DNA of 64,000 nt, taken from IMG/VR virus record IMGVR_UViG_3300042923_001106, positions 96,001 to 160,000 of that record. One strand, written 5' to 3'. Positions within the stretch are counted from its first letter, which is position 1; every line of letters begins with the position of its first letter. The position numbers and the translations under genes were made by a program. The notes beneath the pieces were generated by a model. The model saw nothing but the letters and a program-made list of their open reading frames with translations, was not told the origin of the DNA and searched no databases. Positions 2,886-34,946 of this stretch are shown here, one piece after another. The DNA is from a virus.

Positions 2886-3878
2886 ATGTCATTAGATATC
2901 TTTAATCCGCAAATTTCCGTTATTTCGAGTGGTCTTGAAGGAAAGGTAATATTGATTTATGGTAGCAACTCCTTAGGTAAAACGTTTCAAACCACAAGAA
3001 TGAAAAAGCCTTACTATTTAGGTTTTGAAAAAGGGCTTGGAGCAATCTCAGGGATTCCATTTGCACCGATCAATAAATGGAGCGACTTCAAAAAGGTTAA
3101 TCGTCAGTTAACTTCTCCTTCGACACTAGAAAAAGCAAAGGAACTTTATCAAACGATTATTTTTGATGAGGTAGAAGCTTCTGCACGGTATTGCCAAAAA
3201 TATATTTGTGATTTGTACGAAGCAGATAGTATTAAAAGCGGTAACGAAGGGTACGGTTTGTGGAAGGAATATGAACTTGAATATTGGACTGAGATTGATA
3301 AATTGTTAGGTGCTGGTTATACAATTGCTTTTATTGCACATCAAGACTTCAGTAAGGAATTAGATAAAATTTATCCTAAAGGTGACAAACGTGCTTTAGC
3401 ACCGATTGTTGATAATAGCGATGTAATTGTTTACTTGCGCTCAAATGGTATTGATGAGAAAAACAATGTCATTAAATCAAGTGCATATTTTAATGAGACT
3501 AAAGAATTTTTCGCTCGTAGTCGATTTAATTATATTCAAAATCATCTTCCTGAATTTACGGCAGAAAATTTGGAGCAAGCACTAATTCAAGCAATTAAAA
3601 AGCAGGAAGAAGTTGAAGGAATTAAGTCGGTTACATATGAACAAAAGAAAGAAGTATACGATTCTGGCGAACTAGACTTCGATAAAATTGTAGCAGAGAT
3701 CAATGAGTTGGGTAAAAAATTCCAAGCAGCTAAACGACTTGTAGAATGCACTGAGATTATTGAAAGACACATTGGAAAAAATAAAAAGATTAAAGAATGT
3801 ACGAAATCACAGGTTGAAGCATTATCGCTTATCCTAGACGAGATTAAAGAGTTGCCACAACCTCAAGTAGAAGCATAA
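2886..3878 (+). CDS. P-loop ATPase, YorG/Sak4-like (AAA_24) recombination or annealing protein
   Basis: LIYGSNSLGKT Walker A, IIFDE Walker B; follows SSB. Confidence 0.75.
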   Translation: MSLDIFNPQISVISSGLEGKVILIYGSNSLGKTFQTTRMKKPYYLGFEKGLGAISGIPFAPINKWSDFKKVNRQLTSPSTLEKAKELYQTIIFDEVEASARYCQKYICDLYEADSIKSGNEGYGLWKEYELEYWTEIDKLLGAGYTIAFIAHQDFSKELDKIYPKGDKRALAPIVDNSDVIVYLRSNGIDEKNNVIKSSAYFNETKEFFARSRFNYIQNHLPEFTAENLEQALIQAIKKQEEVEGIKSVTYEQKKEVYDSGELDFDKIVAEINELGKKFQAAKRLVECTEIIERHIGKNKKIKECTKSQVEALSLILDEIKELPQPQVEA

Positions 3879-18092: not shown

Positions 18093-18986
18093 TTGAAAGC
18101 AAGTACAAATGAAGATTTCAAATTGATTGCAATTAAAACAAAAGATAGAGTATACATTTCTGACAATATTACTAATTCGAGTTATTTCAATTCACAAATT
18201 AAATATTTCCTATTCGATGAAACGGAAGCAAAAAGTACATATAAGAGCGACTGGTACGAGGTTTCCGCGATTCCCAATAAAATAGAAAAGAGAATTCCTA
18301 AGCAAGTTATTAAATCTTGGTATGAGTTGAAGGAGGCACATTATAATACTAGTTTACCAAGAGTACTTTATAGCAAAGATTTCGCGGAAGATGGAGAATA
18401 CGAATCAGTTTATGGACTTTATCAGATTAAAAATGAATATGATGAAGGTGGATTAGAATCTATTAAATTTCAACTAAACGTTATTGAAGAACTCGATGAT
18501 TTTGTTATTACAAGAAGTGACTACGAACTACAACATCCAATTCTTGATAAGATTCAAACACATCCGATTTTACTCACAACTAAACACTGTAGCCTAAGCA
18601 GAGAAGATAGTTATAAAATTGTACGTAAATATATTAAAGAAAATATTAATCATAAATATGCAACCATTACAAGTGACTATGATTTTTGCTTTACAGTTGC
18701 AAAGAAAATTGACCATGATCCTGAACCTTATCAAGTTAATGTAGGCAAAAGAAAACCGAAGTATGAAACAAGATATCAGAGAACACGAACAGTAAAGACT
18801 TACGAAATTGCCCCAAAAGCATATCAAAACTATCCTGTAATTGAGCCATTTCAAGGTAAAAATGAACAGGACCTAAAAAATAATATTCAATCATATTTGG
18901 ATGAAGTTATGGCAGTTATTAATAAACCACTTGTTGAATGTGAGCATTGCAAAGGATTGGGGGTTGTAAAGACAAATGAAATTTAA
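18093..18986 (+). CDS. conserved phage protein with C-terminal CxxCxGxG
   Basis: 297 aa, SD GGAGG. Confidence 0.75.
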   Translation: MKASTNEDFKLIAIKTKDRVYISDNITNSSYFNSQIKYFLFDETEAKSTYKSDWYEVSAIPNKIEKRIPKQVIKSWYELKEAHYNTSLPRVLYSKDFAEDGEYESVYGLYQIKNEYDEGGLESIKFQLNVIEELDDFVITRSDYELQHPILDKIQTHPILLTTKHCSLSREDSYKIVRKYIKENINHKYATITSDYDFCFTVAKKIDHDPEPYQVNVGKRKPKYETRYQRTRTVKTYEIAPKAYQNYPVIEPFQGKNEQDLKNNIQSYLDEVMAVINKPLVECEHCKGLGVVKTNEI

Positions 18987-26116: not shown

Positions 26117-26145
26117 CAAATAAAATCGATATTTCATTCAATGGT

Positions 26146-26378: not shown

Positions 26379-26711
26379 ATGAAGTTGTATCAATTGGGCA
26401 AAGGGGTATATAAAACTTACCGGGAAACAGTTAAAGGGAATCAAAATATCACTCCACAACAAGCACAAAAGAAATTGACTCGAAACATTATACTGGCTTT
26501 TAAAGTTTCAAAAAGCAATAATGAAAATTTAAAGCAACGGTACTTCTATGGTAACTTGCACATACTCGTAGTTGGAAATAAAATCGTCTGGATCAAAAAT
26601 ATTAAGCAGAATGGCAACTGGTTTTATAAGGATCAGAAAAAGTATGATGAATTGAATGTGCTGCTTGGTATTGAAAATGATTCTGAAACTATTAATCAAA
26701 GAGTCAGTTAA
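26379..26711 (+). CDS. hypothetical phage protein
   Basis: 110 aa, SD GGGGAG. Confidence 0.7.
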   Translation: MKLYQLGKGVYKTYRETVKGNQNITPQQAQKKLTRNIILAFKVSKSNNENLKQRYFYGNLHILVVGNKIVWIKNIKQNGNWFYKDQKKYDELNVLLGIENDSETINQRVS

Positions 26712-26726
26712 TAAGAGGGAGAAAAC

Positions 26727-26957
26727 ATGAGTGAGGCACTAAAAAATGCCCTATACGATGTAGTAGAAAAAGCAAAGAAATACGATGCGATTATACATCT
26801 TAGAAAAAATGGAGAAATCCATTGTGATTTTTGCGGTAAGTGTCAATGCGATGTTAAGAAGTTAGTAGCTGGACCAAGAGTTTTTATTTGCGACGAATGC
26901 ATAGAACTATGTGTTGAAGTTATTAAAGAAGAGAAAGTGAATGAGGAAGACAAATAA
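26727..26957 (+). CDS. stand-alone ClpX C4-type zinc-finger protein
   Basis: CDFCGK...[24 protein letters not shown]. Confidence 0.88.
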
Positions 26958-26999
26958 AATTATGCTTTCATTGAAGAAAGGGGCGCCTATTGGAAAAAT

Positions 27000-27434
27000 A
27001 TGAGGGATACAAGGGAAATTAAATTCCGGGGACGCCGAATTTGCAATGGTGAGTGGGTATACGGTTGGTTGTATTCAATCGTTCCATATGGAAATCCTCA
27101 TGAGCGTGGTTTTATGATCAAAGAGGATATAGGAGACGATTATGAGGTCGATCCCGAATCAGTAGGTCAATATAGCGGCGTTAACGATGACGACAAGGAT
27201 GAAGAGTTATTTTCTGGAGACATCATACAGGTGGGATACGACGGCGAAACGATTGTCTGTGAAGTGATGAGAGAAGGTCCGGGATTCTTGCTGGCATCAG
27301 GCGAATTTGATGACGGATATATCTGGATCAGTGAAATAGTAGAATCGCTTGATGGCAAGTTTTATATACCTGATTCGGAATTGTTGGGAAATCGCTGGGA
27401 GCATCCTCATCTATTAGGAGGGAACCAAGCATGA
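27000..27434 (+). CDS. YopX family protein
   Basis: REIKFRG...WVYG...VDPESVGQYSG...GNRWEHPHLL. Confidence 0.88.
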   Translation: MRDTREIKFRGRRICNGEWVYGWLYSIVPYGNPHERGFMIKEDIGDDYEVDPESVGQYSGVNDDDKDEELFSGDIIQVGYDGETIVCEVMREGPGFLLASGEFDDGYIWISEIVESLDGKFYIPDSELLGNRWEHPHLLGGNQA

Positions 27435-27817
27435 GGATAGACGATATGAAGCCGGGACCGGAATTGAATGCGGAATTTGCGAAAGCACTCGGAAAGCCGA
27501 ATTTGCGCAAATATAACCACTGCTATGTTTGGGACAATGTGGGGTACGTCAACGGAAAACCAGTTGGATCAGTAATGGGAACGATCGATGTTCCAGAATA
27601 CTCCACAACATGGGACGGAATGAGCGAAGTTGTTGGGGAGATGCAACGACGGGGATACAGATATTTGCTCCATGACACTCATAACGGCATATCGCTTGCG
27701 CAGTTTCAAAAATATAATGCAGAATACGAACTGACTGGGTTCGGCAGGAGTGAAGGAAAAACGGCCCCTCACGCTGTAACGTTGGCAGCTATTAGGGCTC
27801 TACAAGGGGAGCAATAA
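27431..27817 (+). CDS. phage ABA-sandwich-like protein
   Basis: PEYSTTW...V.EM...TAPHAVTLAAIRAL. Confidence 0.65.
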   Translation: MRIDDMKPGPELNAEFAKALGKPNLRKYNHCYVWDNVGYVNGKPVGSVMGTIDVPEYSTTWDGMSEVVGEMQRRGYRYLLHDTHNGISLAQFQKYNAEYELTGFGRSEGKTAPHAVTLAAIRALQGEQ

Positions 27818-27821
27818 ACGT

Positions 27822-27998
27822 ATGAAGACGCTATGTACACGTTGTAAAAAGCCGGTTTATAAAAATCGAAACCACTGGACAGATGTACACGGAAATCGCA
27901 AGCATATTCGCTGCCAAAAAGAAGAAGAACAGGAGCGCCGTGAACGAGATAAAAGAACATCTCGCATGGAGGCTCTACAAGGGGAGGATACCCAATGA
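27822..27998 (+). CDS. 58-aa zinc-finger peptide (absent from ORF track)
   Basis: MKTLCTRCKKPV...HIRC...EALQGEDTQ. Confidence 0.6.
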   Translation: MKTLCTRCKKPVYKNRNHWTDVHGNRKHIRCQKEEEQERRERDKRTSRMEALQGEDTQ

Positions 27999-28222
27999 GT
28001 AAAAAAGGCGGAGATATACTTTGTGATCTCTGGAGCCGAGTCGATCAAGCGGATTTTGACACCATGATTACGGAAGCATTCAAGAAGATTCCTACGAAAA
28101 TCCAAAAGAAATTCATTGCAGAAATTCTTGAAAATAATATTTGGGATTTGAACGGAAAGCCTGATGATAGAACTTTATCCGAGTGCTGGGAATTTGTTGA
28201 TGCAGGGGAGGATACCCGATGA
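27995..28222 (+). CDS. cassette gene, hypothetical
   Basis: 75 aa ending GEDTR. Confidence 0.65.
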   Translation: MSKKGGDILCDLWSRVDQADFDTMITEAFKKIPTKIQKKFIAEILENNIWDLNGKPDDRTLSECWEFVDAGEDTR

Positions 28223-28416
28223 ATAACTGTGGAGTATGCAATCATCACTTAGACATCAACCATGCCCAATTAAGACGATTCGAATTGGATGGGACTCTTA
28301 CGCCGTACCATATGGGTTGTGAGGGTGAGGCGCGGAAACTTAAGCCTTGTGTAGACTGCGGCCAACATCGACTATTATGCAGCGATTGTGCAGAGGTAGG
28401 GGAGGATACCCAATGA
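28219..28416 (+). CDS. cassette gene, Cys-rich
   Basis: 65 aa ending GEDTQ. Confidence 0.65.
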   Translation: MNNCGVCNHHLDINHAQLRRFELDGTLTPYHMGCEGEARKLKPCVDCGQHRLLCSDCAEVGEDTQ

Positions 28417-28610
28417 ATATTATACCAATCATCAGAAATGAAAGAGGTAGCCTGACGCTTAATAGGGCTGATTTGGATATCATCATTGGTCAGATTATTG
28501 ATATATGCAGAACAGAAAAGGAACTGGAATGGGTTCAAGATCAATTAATAGGCTGCATTGAATCCATGGTGGAAGGAAAATTGGAAGAGTTGGAGGATAC
28601 CCAACCATGA
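28413..28610 (+). CDS. cassette gene, hypothetical
   Basis: ends LEDTQP. Confidence 0.6.
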   Translation: MNIIPIIRNERGSLTLNRADLDIIIGQIIDICRTEKELEWVQDQLIGCIESMVEGKLEELEDTQP

Positions 28611-28810
28611 AATACGCGATAAAGTTCCAAGGCGAATATATGCGCCAAAGATACGGATCAGATTGCTTTACCGACGATCTTGGTTTCGCTGTCCTATTCG
28701 ATTCTCGGGAAGAAGCTGTATCCGAACTTTTCGGTGATGAGCATGTCGTTGAAATACAAGAAGACGAAGAAGGCGGAATCTGGGAGGATACAGCAAATGG
28801 AATGGATTAA
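28607..28810 (+). CDS. cassette gene, acidic
   Basis: 67 aa. Confidence 0.6.
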   Translation: MKYAIKFQGEYMRQRYGSDCFTDDLGFAVLFDSREEAVSELFGDEHVVEIQEDEEGGIWEDTANGMD

Positions 28811-29114
28811 TTGCAGCGACAGAATGCCGGAACCGGCTCAACGTGTACTTGCAGTATTCCCAACAGGGTATAAGGGTGTCAGGCATATTTCCTTAGTCAT
28901 TTACGTTCCGGCCAAATCAGTAAAGGCGGAAGATTTGTGGGACGACGACAGTGATTGTGTTGAATACGACGAAGAGAAGGATTGCTTCTACGTCGAAGAA
29001 GGTTGGTATGAATCGTCTTACGAGTCGGAAAAGGATTGGCGTTTGAATTACGAGGTAACTCACTGGATGCCATTACCTCATGTTCCAGTGGCACAAGGGG
29101 AGGATAAAGGGTGA
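28797..29114 (+). CDS. DUF551-like protein
   Basis: MEWINCSDRMPE...VTHWMPLP. Confidence 0.85.
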   Translation: MEWINCSDRMPEPAQRVLAVFPTGYKGVRHISLVIYVPAKSVKAEDLWDDDSDCVEYDEEKDCFYVEEGWYESSYESEKDWRLNYEVTHWMPLPHVPVAQGEDKG

Positions 29115-29371
29115 AACAGCCAAACATAAAAATATTCGGAAAAACTCATAAAGTCGTTCAAATCGAATTTAACGACGATGGCTTAATCCAAAAGATCATA
29201 TATAAGGCAAATCAACACAATAACAGAATAGTATTCCGACGAGACGATATGGTGGATGAATCGCTCGTACGGAAATACAAAATCCACGAGCCAACAAATC
29301 ATCCATACCACAACTATGCTCATGCGCCTGATCTGGAGTCTTTATTGGTACAAGGGGAGGATACCCAATGA
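29111..29371 (+). CDS. cassette gene, hypothetical
   Basis: 86 aa ending QGEDTQ. Confidence 0.7.
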   Translation: MKQPNIKIFGKTHKVVQIEFNDDGLIQKIIYKANQHNNRIVFRRDDMVDESLVRKYKIHEPTNHPYHNYAHAPDLESLLVQGEDTQ

Positions 29372-29659
29372 AGCGTGAACTGATTATATCCGGTTCGGTA
29401 GAAAAATGTTGGGCTTGCAAGGGTCGAGGATATTCGGGATCTGAAAACCATCCCGAATGCGTAGTTTGTAGTGGATATGGTTGGTTGCCGAAGGGAGAAG
29501 AAGATGCCGAGACGCCATCCAGATGAAGTTAAGCAAAAATGCGGACGATGCAGCCGAGAGAGATACGAACTCGTTAAATGTGGCGGAATATATGTATGTT
29601 GGAACTGCTGCAACTACCTAAAAAAGTCGGGGGATGATACCCATGGAACCAGTAAGTAA
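29368..29659 (+). CDS. two overlapping Cys-rich mini-ORFs (29368..29526; 29504..29659)
   Basis: CWACKGRG...CVVCSGYG; CGRC...CWNC. Confidence 0.55.
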
Positions 29660-29990
29660 TGCTGATAAGTTGAGAGATAAAGCACCGGAAGATATAGACG
29701 ATGTCCTATCCGAACTCGAAGACTTGAGCAAATTTTGGAAAGAGGCAATGAGGGAGCAAGCCGAGGAATATATTGAATCTCTCCAATCCATACAGCAGGA
29801 AAGGGATAAACTGCTTCGCAAACTGAACTATAAAGACTTGATTATCTCAAATGCGGTGGAATTAGTTGAGGATCGAGAAAAAGTGCTTTCGGAATTGCGA
29901 CCATTCGTTTCACCAGAGCATCAAAAATTAATAGATTCAGTGGTGGACAACGGGAGTTTCAATGTCGGAGTAGGGGAGGAAAGGACATGA
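29643..29990 (+). CDS. cassette gene, coiled-coil
   Basis: ends GEERT. Confidence 0.6.
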   Translation: MEPVSNADKLRDKAPEDIDDVLSELEDLSKFWKEAMREQAEEYIESLQSIQQERDKLLRKLNYKDLIISNAVELVEDREKVLSELRPFVSPEHQKLIDSVVDNGSFNVGVGEERT

Positions 29991-30253
29991 CCGAATTGAC
30001 GGAACAGCGAAAACGGGAGATCGCTGAGATGGCCCGGAGGGATTTAAACGCTCATGCATGGTTATGCGAACAAGAGCAGGAAGAATATGCCACTGAGGTT
30101 CTTTCCCTCCAACAACAGGTAAACACGCTGACGAAACAGATTGAGGCAGCGTTAACCGATTTGGAAGCATATAAACCTTTAACGGCTATAGTCGTCCTTA
30201 AAAGTGCCATACAGTCTATAAAGGAATCCCCGAGGGAGGAGCAAGGGAAATGA
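29987..30253 (+). CDS. cassette gene, hypothetical
   Basis: 88 aa. Confidence 0.6.
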   Translation: MTELTEQRKREIAEMARRDLNAHAWLCEQEQEEYATEVLSLQQQVNTLTKQIEAALTDLEAYKPLTAIVVLKSAIQSIKESPREEQGK

Positions 30254-30516
30254 TTAAATTGACATATTTTGAAGGTGACGCGCTGTATATTGCGCCAGAT
30301 CGAATTATCGCCGTTTATGATGATATTTCCGCGACAACGATAAGTTGCGGTGGAGAACTTTTCAGCGTGGAAGAAAAGCCAGAAGAAGTAGTACGCAAGA
30401 TCATGGATTACAAACTGGCTATGATTGAATACCGTTCGAAATTCCAAAACAATAAATCTGTTGCTGACATATTGTGGGGAATGAATAAACTGGCCGGATT
30501 GGAGCAGACCCCATGA
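30250..30516 (+). CDS. FlbD-like small protein
   Basis: MIKLT...LYIAPDRIIAV...T.I....FSVEEKPEEV. Confidence 0.55.
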   Translation: MIKLTYFEGDALYIAPDRIIAVYDDISATTISCGGELFSVEEKPEEVVRKIMDYKLAMIEYRSKFQNNKSVADILWGMNKLAGLEQTP

Positions 30517-30917
30517 TAGTACGAATCACATTTGGCGACCGAGTAATGATGTTTGGAGATAGCTATAAGCCGTGGCACATGCAGATGGACGAATATATGC
30601 GGCGATGTGCAGAAGGATTGCCAAGACCGGAAAGGGTTGAAGTATCAAAATCAAAGTGGATCGGGTGGGGTGGCTTAAAGTGGTGTTCATCGGATAACTT
30701 TCAGCATGAGTTGAACCGTGAAGGGTGCCAAGAAAGCGATCCAGACAATTCTCGGCCACGTAAATACGCTGATATGGAGTTTGCTCCGGCAAAAGGAAAG
30801 GTGTTGGGGAAAGTATACGATGCATGGGAGTCTGGTCAGCGATTGATGAAAATCGGGAAATTAAATGATGAAGAATATAGGTTGTATCAGCGCGGAGAAT
30901 TGAAAATAACTGTCTAG
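30513..30917 (+). CDS. hypothetical phage protein
   Basis: 134 aa. Confidence 0.7.
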   Translation: MIVRITFGDRVMMFGDSYKPWHMQMDEYMRRCAEGLPRPERVEVSKSKWIGWGGLKWCSSDNFQHELNREGCQESDPDNSRPRKYADMEFAPAKGKVLGKVYDAWESGQRLMKIGKLNDEEYRLYQRGELKITV

Positions 30918-30948
30918 GCCCAATAGGGGATAAAGGGAGAGAAAATGA

Positions 30949-31137
30949 ATGGCTAAATATGTGTTTTTTGCATCGACTGGGTATGTTGGATCAAGCCGTG
31001 AAGAAACTGTAGAAATTCCGGACGAGGAACTTGAGGGCATGTCTGAGAACGAACAAACTGCGTACGTTGATAAAAATTATTATCAGGATTGGTTGGCGGG
31101 AAACACTGAATTATCATTTTGGAAAGTCGACGAGTAA
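30949..31137 (+). CDS. small acidic phage protein
   Basis: 62 aa. Confidence 0.65.
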   Translation: MAKYVFFASTGYVGSSREETVEIPDEELEGMSENEQTAYVDKNYYQDWLAGNTELSFWKVDE

Positions 31138-31494
31138 AGGAGAATCCCCATGGAACAGATAGAGGGGTAGAAGGGTAACGTACCTATAACCCCCTTTATC
31201 GGCCCCCACTTCGTTAAGCGGATTCGGTCGAGTCGTAGGATTAGTCAAAGGACGAAAGATGAACACCAATACAATGCGAGAAACTGCCGCAAGGGCTACG
31301 ATGTGTGTACTGCAAAACAATGGAAAAGAATAAGTTAGCGAAAGCAAAAAGTTGGTTTGGACAAGGGGAATACAATGTTAATTTGATGATTTCCGCTGGG
31401 GTAATAACGGAATATCGAATTCTACAAATGTACGAAAAAGAAGTAGAAGGCAAGTAGCATTTTGAATAATTTGTCCGTAAGGGGTGAAACAGGG

Positions 31495-31850
31495 ATGGAT
31501 GAAAAGAAGTGTCCTAACGAGTGTGGAGATTTAGAAAATGTTAGAGGTCATATCGAAACGAATGACGGAAGAACGTATTTCAAAGTGGATATTTTATATT
31601 GTCCTGATTGTCATTACATTCAAAACGTAGATGCCAACTTGTAACATTTTGAAAAGGCGGTGTAGATGTGGAATTTAAGTATTTACCTCTTGATTTTTAC
31701 TCGGTGGATTATTGGAAGGGGCGGATTGAAAAATCGTCCTCTACAAAATATGAATTTGTAGTAGATCATACTGAGTTAGTGTTAGAGCAAAATGTTAGTC
31801 CAACTGAGAAATTAAAGGCGATTCAAGCGCTTATTAATGCAACAAAATGA
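31495..31850 (+). CDS. two small ORFs (31495..31644 zinc ribbon; 31668..31850)
   Basis: CPNEC...CPDC; SDs present. Confidence 0.55.
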
Positions 31851-32053
31851 ATAAAAAGTTACATCATAAGGCCGAACGGCCACCGAGTTGACCGAAATAC
31901 TCAGGCGTAGCCGGTGGCCGGATCAATCCATTTTGGAGGTAACCCAAGACGATTTGAATTGCGTGAGATTGTAAAGTGGCTGTTCATTGAACCATTCTTG
32001 AATTATAAGAAAAACAAGCACGTAAAATACTGATTGTATTAAGGGGGACGAAA

Positions 32054-32497
32054 ATGAAAAAGGAAATTGTAAGTGTACCTAAAATTGAATATCAGCCAGT
32101 ACAAACAGGTATTTCAAATGTTGAAATATGGATCACGAGCGATGGAGGAAGATTTGAAAACGAACAAGATGCCGAACATCACGAATTCTTGTGGCGCGTT
32201 GCTTGGAAAAATAAAAACCTTAACTTACATTATGATCCTGAAACTTTTGAATTTGAAAGTCTCGAGGATGCCATACGATATTTTAAAATTTATTCTGTTT
32301 ATGAGAGGAAAGATTACTCCCTAGAGGAACTAAGTTATCCTTGCAAGGTTGTAAAGTACAGTGAGTATTCTTCCTGTGATTGCGCACTTCAGTATCAAAA
32401 CGAGCATTATTGTACGGAAGAAGATATGAGAATAACGAAAATCATTCCATTAGAAGACTACAAAAAGATGATGATCGAATATATAAGCGATCTATGA
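32054..32497 (+). CDS. hypothetical protein
   Basis: 147 aa. Confidence 0.7.
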   Translation: MKKEIVSVPKIEYQPVQTGISNVEIWITSDGGRFENEQDAEHHEFLWRVAWKNKNLNLHYDPETFEFESLEDAIRYFKIYSVYERKDYSLEELSYPCKVVKYSEYSSCDCALQYQNEHYCTEEDMRITKIIPLEDYKKMMIEYISDL

Positions 32498-32732
32498 AAT
32501 CTAAATTTCATGGGAAGGAGTATTTTCATGAGTTATGATCCAGAATTTTATTATCAAGAGTTGGGAATGGAAAAAGATGTTCTGGAACTCGAAATCAAGG
32601 ATTGTGAAAAACTAATCGATAAACATAAAAAGAGAATTAAAAAAATAAATAAAAAGATGAAAGAGCTAGAGAATGAAATATAACTTTTATTCACCAAGGA
32701 TCAAAAATGAAGATTGAATGATGAGGTGAAAA

Positions 32733-33356
32733 ATGGATAATTACTTAGTCGAAGTTCAATTTGACTATGGAAGCAATAAAAATATACTCACCAGAGGACA
32801 ACTTGATTTGCTTCAATCAATAAGTTCAAGAGAAGTCAGAGCCGATCAATTAAGCAAAAGACACTTAGATATTAATCAAACATCATTTTGGAGGGATGAA
32901 GACAAAAACCATGAAGATGCTAGAGTTATGGTAGATGCATTCCATATTGGCGGAAAAACCAATATCGTATCTTTAAAAAATCTGTTAGATCTAGACATTC
33001 CTATTGAGTTTAAAATTCTAAATAAAATAAAAGAAATACCAGAATATAATGTGCAAGAAACGATATTTCATAAATTGATTAAACTTGAATCTAAATTAAA
33101 TCAGTTTGATCAACAAATGCAATTTAATTATAAAGTTGGTGTACATATCAGCGACCTTGGATTGCTGAACGTTAAACAGGTTACGTGGCTTGAAGATGCT
33201 TGCACAGAACAACTTCAAAAAATGCTAGATAGAGGGTGGCGAATTCTTGCTGTCTGTCCACAACCCAATAGTCGTAGACCTGATTATGTATTAGGCAAAA
33301 ATGATAAATGTGAAGATGAGAAAGAGGGAATCCTTGCAGGTCGAAGTTGTAGTTAA
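32733..33356 (+). CDS. hypothetical phage protein
   Basis: 207 aa; EDACTE.LQ..LD.GWRILAVCPQP..RRPDYVLG. Confidence 0.75.
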   Translation: MDNYLVEVQFDYGSNKNILTRGQLDLLQSISSREVRADQLSKRHLDINQTSFWRDEDKNHEDARVMVDAFHIGGKTNIVSLKNLLDLDIPIEFKILNKIKEIPEYNVQETIFHKLIKLESKLNQFDQQMQFNYKVGVHISDLGLLNVKQVTWLEDACTEQLQKMLDRGWRILAVCPQPNSRRPDYVLGKNDKCEDEKEGILAGRSCS

Positions 33357-33389
33357 GTAAATAAAATATTTTTTATCAGGGGGTTGTAA

Positions 33390-33848
33390 ATGAACGGATT
33401 AACGGATGTTAGGTTTATTTTAGACCAAAAGCATGATTATGATATCGGTTCAGAAATTTCAATTTATCTCGGAAATAATGTTGTTGGTCAAGCAAAAGTT
33501 CTTTCAAAGAATTCAACATGCTGTATTAACCACCGAACTAATGATCGTGAACAACTTTATGATTATACCTTTGAAATCAGCGAAAATCTAAAGGCGTCTG
33601 GACACAATAAATATACGCCTTATTTTAATGGGGCATACGGACGCCTGTGTGTTTCGGATAATGAATTGCTGAGAAAACAAGAGAAGGAAATGCACCAGCG
33701 GAACGTAGATCGGGTTCGTAAGCAAGATATTAGTTTTAAATATGTATGCTTGTCTTGTGAAACTGTAATCGCTTCGAGCAAAGAGTTCAAATCTACCTCC
33801 TGTAAACATTGCCGAAAGGGTAAATTAGAGCGAGTAAGTAATTGGTGA
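33390..33848 (+). CDS. hypothetical protein with C-terminal zinc ribbon
   Basis: CLSC...CKHC. Confidence 0.7.
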   Translation: MNGLTDVRFILDQKHDYDIGSEISIYLGNNVVGQAKVLSKNSTCCINHRTNDREQLYDYTFEISENLKASGHNKYTPYFNGAYGRLCVSDNELLRKQEKEMHQRNVDRVRKQDISFKYVCLSCETVIASSKEFKSTSCKHCRKGKLERVSNW

Positions 33849-33876
33849 TAAAAGACAAATTTGATTAGGTGAGAAA

Positions 33877-34080
33877 ATGGATAACGAAATATATGAGAGG
33901 CATTTACATGTCCTTGATCCTTACGAGTATGAAGTTGTAGTCCGACGATACGGATTAAGAGGCTTTGAAAAAAGAACGCAAAAAGAAGTAGGCAATGAAC
34001 TGGGTGTCAGCTGGTCGTTTGTATCCAGAGTTGAAAAACGGGGGATTTTTAAAATTAAACATGAGTTGATAAAAGAATAA
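33877..34080 (+). CDS. stand-alone sigma region-4 HTH protein (SigK/SigE-like)
   Basis: EVVVRRYGL...TQKEVGNELGVSWSFVSRVEKRGIFK. Confidence 0.8.
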   Translation: MDNEIYERHLHVLDPYEYEVVVRRYGLRGFEKRTQKEVGNELGVSWSFVSRVEKRGIFKIKHELIKE

Positions 34081-34091
34081 TAACCATTAAA

Positions 34092-34331
34092 TTGGAGTGT
34101 GCAGATATGCGAAAAACACTGTACGACTATATTAGCGAAAAGTACCCACACAGTATTAATGATTCGGATATGGAATGTATAGAAGATGACATTGCAGTCT
34201 ATCTCATCCAAGGATTCACACTAGAAGAATGTGTTGATGCAGCAATACAGTATTACCATAATCATCGAATTTTCCAAGACGATCCTGCATCATGCTTTGG
34301 ATTTGGAATGCGAGAATATTTAGACGAATAA
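34092..34331 (+). CDS. hypothetical protein
   Basis: about 75 aa. Confidence 0.6.
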   Translation: MECADMRKTLYDYISEKYPHSINDSDMECIEDDIAVYLIQGFTLEECVDAAIQYYHNHRIFQDDPASCFGFGMREYLDE

Positions 34332-34367
34332 AAGAGAATTTTCATTGGGAGATGAATTCAAAAGAAA

Positions 34368-34946
34368 ATGAATATTATTAATGATATTTTGCCATTTATT
34401 AAACCTTCCGGTAGAGACGAAAACGGAAAGTTCAATAAGAAATTATATAACTTGTTTAAAATGATTTCTAAGAATGAGTATAGCAATAGGCAACTTAGGG
34501 TTTTCTTTAAGCCCCAAAGTTGGTGGGACGGGAGTTACATCGATTTTCATAAAAACATTCACAAAGAAATTCATAGCCTTACAAGACAAATCATTCTTAG
34601 TCCATATGGAGAGCCGCATTCAGGATATTCACTTATGGAAGCACTAAATAAAAATAAACCAGAAGTGTATTCATGGATAATGCATAAGACGGAAGATTTT
34701 ATCGATGTTACTGAGTGGTTCTTCAATACATATAGGTCGATTGGGCGATGCATGTTCGATAATTTACATCATGATTTCGATAACCAATACAACAATCGTT
34801 ATTACATTATTAATAAGAATCATCGTAAATGCCGTTGGTGCGGGAAACATTTTCATCGAGAACACCATAAAGAAGTTGAGGTCAGAAAATACACGATTTG
34901 GAAAGAGACAAATAAAGAGGAGACAATTATTAATGCAAAAATTTAA
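34368..34946 (+). CDS. hypothetical phage protein
   Basis: 192 aa with CRWCG. Confidence 0.7.
   Translation: MNIINDILPFIKPSGRDENGKFNKKLYNLFKMISKNEYSNRQLRVFFKPQSWWDGSYIDFHKNIHKEIHSLTRQIILSPYGEPHSGYSLMEALNKNKPEVYSWIMHKTEDFIDVTEWFFNTYRSIGRCMFDNLHHDFDNQYNNRYYIINKNHRKCRWCGKHFHREHHKEVEVRKYTIWKETNKEETIINAKI

Follow-up and report, generated by a model that had tools for sequence, protein, structure and literature searches.

A chain of small genes on near-identical connectors

A block of 16 small, co-oriented genes (g1 to g16) in a 183-kb phage genome (IMG/VR virus record IMGVR_UViG_3300042923_001106) is strung together by near-identical junction sequences, which we call connectors or linkers. We consider it probable that this block is an array of unrelated accessory mini-genes whose translation-coupling connectors also act as short homology for cassette exchange, a reading that comes from sequence comparison. 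The DNA analyzed, hereafter the window, comprises bases 96001 to 160000 (64,000 nucleotides [nt]) of the 183,208-bp record, which is rated complete. Coordinates without a prefix are window positions, and all block genes lie on the + strand (Table 1).

The G+C content (GC) of the block is 0.43 to 0.46, compared to 0.32 to 0.35 in its flanks. A preliminary description, made from the letters alone, had noted this enrichment and proposed an array of about 15 genes between 27416 and 30516; the array itself was upheld, with 13 genes in that interval and 16 in the whole block (~26998-31245). Consecutive genes do end in near-identical DNA, as had been described: AGGGGAGGATACCCAATGA occurs in three exact copies (27980, 28398, and 29353) and one with a single mismatch (28204), where 100 shuffles led us to expect 0, and about five further junctions carry decayed copies, at the starts of g7 (28592-28610), g8, g9 (29092-29114), g12, and g13. 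The rest of the 183,208-bp record lacks AGGGGAGGATACCCAATGA. All six copies of GGAGGATAC on the + strand of the genome likewise fall inside the block, and ribosome sites outside it are of the AGGAGG type, never GGAGGATAC. The longest repeat within the window measures 23 nt (27976-27998 and 29349-29371), and the longer sequence said to be common to two neighbors proved to be GGCTCTACAAGGGGAG, present at 27796-27811 and 27971-27986 on either side of g3.

In each connector, a strong ribosome site (GGGGAGG) is followed by a spacer of fixed sequence (ATACCC..) and then by a start codon whose bases overlap the preceding stop (ATGA); the ribosome site lies 6 to 10 nt 5' of the start codon and inside the preceding gene. 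Overlaps of the ATGA or NTGA type couple the translation of neighboring genes by termination-reinitiation. Four-nucleotide start/stop overlaps occur at 10 of the 16 block junctions, compared to 15 of 422 naive + strand calls elsewhere, and the full arrangement of a coupled operon, a 4-nt overlap with a ribosome site 5 to 10 nt upstream in the preceding gene, was likewise present at 10 of 16. Given that the ribosome site sits in the last upstream codons and the stop overlaps the start, the genes would be translated as a coupled chain, ribosomes terminating and re-initiating at each ATGA overlap. The connectors also write the ends of the proteins they follow (ALQGEDTQ, AGEDTR, VGEDTQ, LEDTQP, AQGEDKG, VQGEDTQ, and GVGEERT), and the tails listed in the preliminary description reappeared in our translations.

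One connector version, ..ATACCCAATGA, has four copies in the window but none in the relatives described below. Because a search of IMG/VR for the exact 18-mer of the window's connector gave only three single chance matches, this version is specific to the present lineage, and its four copies suggest serial use or homogenization within that lineage.

Short, regularly spaced genes with similar ends could have arisen by tandem duplication of a single gene followed by divergence. The array, however, contains distinct families (YopX, DUF551, FlbD-like, and DUF7167), and an all-against-all BLASTP comparison of the block proteins revealed no similarity outside the connector-encoded tails. The proteins are not paralogues, and the duplication origin is refuted, leaving it next to no probability.

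The connector family recurs between different genes in relatives

Homologues of g2, g13, g14, and g15 were found in prophage regions of Paenibacillus, Cohnella, and Brevibacillus genomes and in viral or metagenomic contigs, the viral ones of ~42 to 48 kb, with loci of 44 to 51% GC. We compared the window with nine relatives (L017, L018, L019, L029, L031, L038, L040, L042, and L044). Two further candidates from the metagenome scan, L041 and L043, were chance matches, and a blastn comparison of the entire block with 50,697 phage records returned one irrelevant 99-nt match.

The same family of junction sequences recurs in all nine relatives, in many cases without a single changed letter, whereas the genes between the junctions differ in identity and number. 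In the form found in the relatives, the types are J_A (..GCTCTACAAGGGGAGGATACC..ATGA, placed after g2), J_B (GGGGAGGATACCCAACCATGA), J_C (GGAGGATACCC ATGGAACCAGTA), J_D (GTAGGGGAGGAAAGGACATGA), and J_E (AAGGAATCCCCGAGGGAGGAGCAAGGGAAATGAT), to which are added J_F and two intergenic types, J_G and J_H. J_B is identical over 19 nt in L018, L019, L029, L040, L042, and L044, where it lies between other genes; for this type alone, several different genes precede it and several follow it. The J_C start is reused in L017, L018, L019, L031, L038, L042, and L044, J_D is present in L018, L019, L029, L031, L038, and L042, and the genes 3' of J_F differ from phage to phage. The 54-nt J_E is 96% identical to that of L018, and the proteins on either side of it are only 36 to 52% identical. 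Taken over the window and its nine relatives (10 genomes), 39 motif-bearing junctions join ~35 distinct gene pairs.

Conservation peaked immediately before start codons. At positions -20 to -1, a mean of 4.6 to 4.8 of the nine relatives had an exact word of 14 nt or longer in common with the window, compared to a mean of 0.04 to 0.3 in gene interiors. Against L018, the window displays islands of 100% identity, 16 to 54 nt long and mostly on junctions, with flanking proteins that are 36 to 52% identical or unrelated. Homology breakpoints fall at the junctions, where the preliminary description had suggested looking for them. Gene order and content, which it had proposed comparing among relatives, vary between the conserved junctions: the interval between the g2 and g13 anchors holds 2 to ~5 genes in the relatives versus 10 in the window, whose array is the most expanded of those compared, and in L017 the MEPV start with which g12 opens in the window follows immediately on g2.

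The preliminary description had named two outcomes that would count against its proposal: a gene order that is invariant among relatives, and similarity that is explained by Shine-Dalgarno constraint alone. The variable interval just described speaks against the first. As for the second, the similarity takes in the spacer and flanks as well as the ribosome-binding core, and noncoding copies of the motif retain it, the motif being kept in an intergenic position in L018 (e.g., L018 6847), L038, L044, and L019. In L018, the upstream gene ends just before J_B; because J_B persists there without being translated, we regard the motif as a nucleic acid feature and the shared tails (GEDTQ and its kin) as a probable by-product of translating the connector. 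The converse, that the C-terminal peptide is what is selected, for example as a degradation or sorting tag, with DNA identity secondary, could draw on the seven proteins with related tails and on the Thr codon, whose third base varies among relatives (ACC, ACA, ACG, and ACT). The Glu, Asp, and Gln codons, however, are free of synonymous variation, the tail is missing from free-standing homologues, and the motif is intergenic in the four relatives just named, all of which makes a selected peptide scarcely probable.

Scars of gene gain, loss, and replacement

Gene gains and losses are bounded by direct linker repeats of 9 to 17 nt, of which the window itself provides an example in the 16 nt around g3. 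In L019, an extra 65-amino-acid (aa) gene lies between two copies of J_D, and in L031 J_E is interrupted at GGGAGGAGC by a 61-aa gene. The g14 gene is precisely absent from L038, where a hybrid junction combines the left half of J_E with the right half of J_F, the two meeting at their common GGAGCA. L042 contains a hybrid of J_A and J_B and a tandem pair of J_B junctions. It also has two g13 paralogues, both preceded by a J_D, so that J_D is doubled around extra genes in both L019 and L042.

Three genes (g4, g7, and g9) could be traced to free-standing homologues, and in each case similarity sets in at the start codon and is lost either at the connector or no more than a few codons away from it. 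For g9, the best-matching homologues are Paenibacillus chromosomal genes of 81 to 83 aa that stand alone behind an ordinary AAGGAG site. Their similarity runs from codon 1 to ..LESLLV, after which the homologues end in EIN*, ESY*, and the like, versus QGEDTQ* in the window. The g4 protein is 66% identical to the product of a free-standing gene in a low-GC Paenibacillus prophage that has an ordinary ribosome site and a different C terminus, the similarity fading a few codons before the connector-encoded tail. Homologues of g7 elsewhere are also free-standing, and their native ..GGLWEE end already contains GGGAGGA, where the connector begins.

Two further observations concern individual genes. 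A Cys-rich gene at L018 6310-6595 contains an internal, decayed J_A tail (..EALQGE|VEIAC..) and ends in ..ALQGEDTTS, as though two mini-genes had been joined in frame at a connector. In several Paenibacillus assemblies (L045 6001-10389, L046, L047, and L049), the chromosomal homologues of g9 lie convergent to GajB, ~10 bp beyond it, beside a GajA-GajB (Gabija) operon (GajB E value, 1e-266; GajA E value, 7e-208). The phage of the window encodes Gad1 at 18093-18986, and the g9 family may be linked to Gabija defense or counter-defense.

Recombination at connectors and its alternatives

The preliminary description had proposed that short homology at the ribosome site and start codon lets genes be swapped or added in frame, and the variable content and junction breakpoints described above support this proposal. 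In the scheme that we favor, the 16 to 25 nt of identity, repeated within and between phages, would serve as short recombination homology. Whole genes would be inserted, deleted, or replaced, each product keeping reading frames and coupling intact. The candidate enzymes are phage single-strand-annealing proteins, Sak4-like in this phage and ERF with SSB in two relatives. We searched this genome for RecT and ERF and found neither, and its Sak4-like gene is listed in Table 1. In L019 and L029, an ERF-family annealase with SSB is encoded 2 to 3 kb upstream of the array. L019 also carries an HNH-AP2 endonuclease gene directly before g2. Rad52-like and Sak4 phage recombinases carry out relaxed homologous recombination (PMC3945230, PMC2327257, PMC5928155), the Rad52-like ones on short and diverged homology; the minimal pairing segment is reported to be 23 to 27 bp for Red-beta and 31 to 34 bp for RecA (PMC3945230). 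The longest window repeat, at 23 nt, falls within the Red-beta range. These systems resemble ours in offering a route for exchange at short or diverged homology, and the phages compared here encode ERF or Sak4-like proteins; the difference is that their use of 16- to 25-nt connectors is here presumed from sequence.

Several points weigh against this scheme. The evidence for recombination is wholly comparative, with the events themselves reconstructed from it, and it comes from nine relatives, all uncultured or prophage sequences, whose gene maps were made with a simple gene caller. By tblastn, g2 and g9 were present in no isolated phage of the 50,697-record collection. Most of the identical stretches, at 16 to 23 nt, do not exceed the published minima for pairing. 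The ATACCC spacer is conserved beyond what recombination alone accounts for, and some other function could maintain it. Finally, some scars rest on 6 to 9 nt, a microhomology level that amounts to illegitimate recombination filtered by selection, and because of these short joints microhomology-level events would also contribute to the scars.

The short joints also fit another account, in which the connectors are conserved only as an optimal ribosome site with ATGA coupling, illegitimate recombination and selection do the rest, and the connectors have no role in recombination. This account agrees with the 10 of 16 junctions at which a 4-nt overlap is combined with a strong, suitably spaced ribosome site, and with the fact that the native homologues of g4, g7, and g9 all begin with ATGA, so that their 5' joints may be simple microhomology. 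It leaves unexplained, however, why unrelated genes have in common identical spacers of 7 to 10 nt and up to 15 nt of upstream flank, why indels are bordered by 16- to 17-nt direct repeats, and how hybrid connectors arose; moreover, the remaining genome has AGGAGG-type sites and never GGAGGATAC. We therefore judge coupling alone to be unlikely.

Nucleotide-level conservation that covers the spacer and is kept where noncoding, in a motif confined to one co-regulated block, would also be expected if the connector were an RNA operator, that is, a translational repressor or endoribonuclease site, with recombination a side effect. T4 RegA and RegB act in this manner on the ribosome sites of early genes. 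Here, no candidate regulator was identified, and the connectors are of several types (J_A to J_H) rather than one operator. The junction RNAs are also unstructured: 12 junction 60-mers had a mean z of 0.05 relative to shuffles. Since an operator would by itself leave the scars unexplained as well, we consider this account quite improbable. The same 12 60-mers folded no better than shuffles when considered for a hairpin that sequesters the ribosome site through G-run/C-run pairing, which leaves that candidate unsupported.

A more elaborate version of exchange at connectors is that they are the recognition sites of a dedicated cassette-acquisition mechanism, such as a nuclease or annealase targeting the GGGGAGGATACCC family. 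We give this a very low probability. Were it true, the array would be a programmable store of accessory, possibly anti-defense, genes, with a logic comparable to that of an integron but working through the ribosome site.

Origin of the block and its edges

The replicative helicase of this phage is 54% identical to its counterpart in SPbeta-like Bacillus phages, and gene order in the module matches that of the small-gene region in temperate phages of the Paenibacillus type. The stretch homologous to the relatives begins at 26998, at the start codon of g1 (YopX), and ends at ~31238 after a conserved intergenic word. The GC step and the colinearity with Paenibacillus prophage modules support the acquisition of the whole module by an SPbeta-like phage from a Paenibacillus-type temperate phage, and the earlier suggestion that the block was captured as one unit fits this span from the YopX start codon to the conserved intergenic element. 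Because a primase-based search for backbone relatives with an empty site found none, the case for capture draws on composition and colinearity. In our scheme, the 183-kb phage would thus have taken over a ready-made array.

At the right end, a 74-nt element 100% identical to L042 provides a ribosome site and an ATGGAAC start followed by six codons only, the remnant of a gene start, and its hairpin (31158-31200) has a 10-bp stem. The word GCGGATTCGGTCGAxTCG follows on its 3' side, and the genes found after this word differ among the relatives. The stretch 31134-31260 is possibly a terminator/promoter-type linker at the module end. Within the block, promoter- and terminator-like sites were in no excess over shuffled controls, with none at junctions, and an Rfam search of 26500-32500 returned nothing credible.

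The preliminary description had also pointed to another "cassette system," marked by the AT-rich intergenic motif AAATRAAA..TTTYATT. As it had stated, this palindrome is absent inside the block (0 of the 11 copies in the window) and present at its left edge, at 26952; another copy is at 26118. A degenerate copy claimed at 32022 was unconvincing and could not be confirmed.

Relation to known systems

Modular theories of phage evolution hold that exchange occurs at boundary "linker" sequences (Susskind and Botstein; Clark et al. 2001), insofar as the theory is presented in PMC3029335, which cites these works; linkers were not identifiable at most mosaic boundaries (PMC3029335). The likeness to our connectors lies in a short sequence at gene boundaries that is common to unrelated modules, at which homology breaks and genes stay intact. 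Conserved sequence indeed separates unrelated, nonparalogous genes at the 39 junctions; breakpoints coincide with it, as seen in the -20 to -1 peak, the L018 islands, and the ends of g7 and g9 at the connector and of g4 a few codons before; and repeat-flanked indels or hybrid linkers occur at g3, at J_D in L019, at J_E in L031, and in L038 and L042. What differs is that the linker here is the coupling junction itself, inside the upstream coding sequence and writing a common tail, and that it is repeated at nine consecutive junctions in one genome. The boundary or linker route to mosaicism is a kind already known, of which the junction-type connector array is a new form. This instance stands out for its number of consecutive junctions, its distinct connector types, its clean scars, and its cross-lineage capture.

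Four other systems invite comparison. The promoter-early stem-loops (PeSLs) of T4-type phages (Arbiol et al. 2010 [PMC2839356]; PMC4122927) are likewise repeated small expression signals that flank nonessential small genes in a hyperplastic region where recombination inserts, deletes, and replaces genes, and the connectors similarly flank small genes and mark indels between relatives. A PeSL, however, is a promoter with a terminator hairpin in intergenic DNA, whereas the connector combines a ribosome site and an ATGA overlap inside a single transcript; shuffled controls and the mean z of 0.05 revealed no sigma-70-like promoter and stem-loop terminator in each repeat. In mycobacteriophage Island3, the inserted gene 68 has C-terminal residues and ~50 bp in common with its upstream gene, which was read as recombination at a short repeat, the first such case in mycobacteriophages (Pope et al. 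2011, PMC3029335). The shared C-terminal residues and short repeat are as in our block, but Island3 represents a single event, whereas here we see a serial array and a connector family in at least 10 genomes. Integron gene cassettes are more distant: the connector motif is nonpalindromic and its junctions form no attC-type hairpin. General scans near the block, none of them a dedicated search, revealed no IntI tyrosine recombinase or attI. Ordinary NTGA-coupled junctions have the same 4-nt overlaps and ribosome sites inside the upstream gene but are not identical from gene to gene.

Clean natural examples of the linker model of phage mosaicism are scarce. Because one small system here displays the linker, the scars, the variable cargo, and candidate recombinases together, the model becomes directly testable. 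The array indicates that the same sequence can serve as both translation signal and recombination site, and it offers an explanation, useful for annotation, for meaningless C-terminal tails common to unrelated phage proteins. It would also document the transfer of a whole array from ~45-kb temperate phages to an SPbeta-like giant phage.

Features of the block and other observations

Besides the matches of g1, g8, g14, and g16 and the Cys-rich nature of g3, g5, g10, and g11, Pfam and phrog searches assigned the block genes to no family, g15 matching only phrog_32581 (Table 1). A YopX-family gene directly precedes the g2 homologue in L018, L031, and L044 and the g2 stretch of L017; in L019 and L029 it lies further upstream.

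TABLE 1 Coordinates of the block, its genes and connectors, and associated loci
Feature	Position	Strand	Remarks
GC-rich module, putatively captured; 16 co-oriented small genes, g1-g16	~26998-31245 (4.2 kb)	+	GC, homology to relatives
g1, YopX-family, first module gene	27000-27434	+	Pfam YopX E 1.5e-5 (above cut-off); phrog_8684/98
g2, left anchor, end ..AIRALQGEQ with truncated linker	27431-27817	+	70% identity to L017, 48% to Paenibacillus sp. GYB003
16-nt direct repeat GGCTCTACAAGGGGAG, left copy	27796-27811	+	Flanks g3; right copy 27971-27986
g3, 58 aa, Cys-rich, tail ALQGEDTQ	27822-27998	+
Linker copy 1 (TACAAGGGGAGGATACCCAATGA), g3/g4 junction	27976-27998	+	23 nt identical to copy 4
g4, 75 aa	27995-28222	+
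Linker copy 2, g4/g5 junction	28200-28222	+	1 mismatch
g5, 65 aa, Cys-rich, tail VGEDTQ	28219-28416	+
Linker copy 3, g5/g6 junction	28394-28416	+
g6, 65 aa, tail LEDTQP	28413-28610	+
Linker variant J_B (GGAGGATACCCAACCATGA), g6/g7 junction	28592-28610	+
g7, 67 aa	28607-28810	+
g8, DUF551, tail AQGEDKG	28797-29114	+	Pfam DUF551 E 3e-13
Decayed linker, g8/g9 junction, GTGA overlap	29092-29114	+
g9, 86 aa, end is linker-encoded QGEDTQ	29111-29371	+
Linker copy 4, g9/g10 junction	29349-29371	+
g10, 52 aa, zinc-ribbon-like, Cys-rich	29368-29526	+	Weak CXXC-type Pfam matches
g11, 51 aa, Cys-rich, tail GDDTHGTSK running 17 nt into g12	29504-29659	+
Linker J_C (GGGGATGATACCC ATGGAACCAGTAAGTAA), 17-nt overlap, g11/g12	29628-29659	+
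g12, 115 aa, tail GVGEERT	29643-29990	+
Linker J_D (GTAGGGGAGGAAAGGACATGAC)	29968-29993	+
g13, right anchor	29987-30253	+
Linker J_E, 54 nt	30210-30263	+
g14, FlbD-like	30250-30516	+	Pfam FlbD E 9e-6
Linker J_F (GGATTGGAGCAGACCCCATGA)	30493-30516	+
g15, phrog_32581 protein	30513-30917	+
g16, DUF7167	30949-31137	+	Pfam
Right-end element: linker J_H, six-codon remnant frame, 10-bp-stem hairpin	31134-31207	+	74 nt, 100% identical to L042
Sak4-like (AAA_24) candidate single-strand-annealing recombinase of this phage	2886-3878	+	PF13479 E 1.5e-38
ERF-family annealase loci in relatives, with SSB in L029	L019 5565-6302; L029 5250-6272

Just left of the block, a 76-aa protein encoded at 26727-26957 matches phage families annotated as protease (phrog_12435). 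Elsewhere in the genome, a second GC-rich region outside the window (genome positions 171952-178890) consists of one minus-strand gene of 2312 aa that is unrelated to the block, and further GC-rich stretches, of up to 54% GC, lie at genome positions 33000-34500 and 72500-75000.

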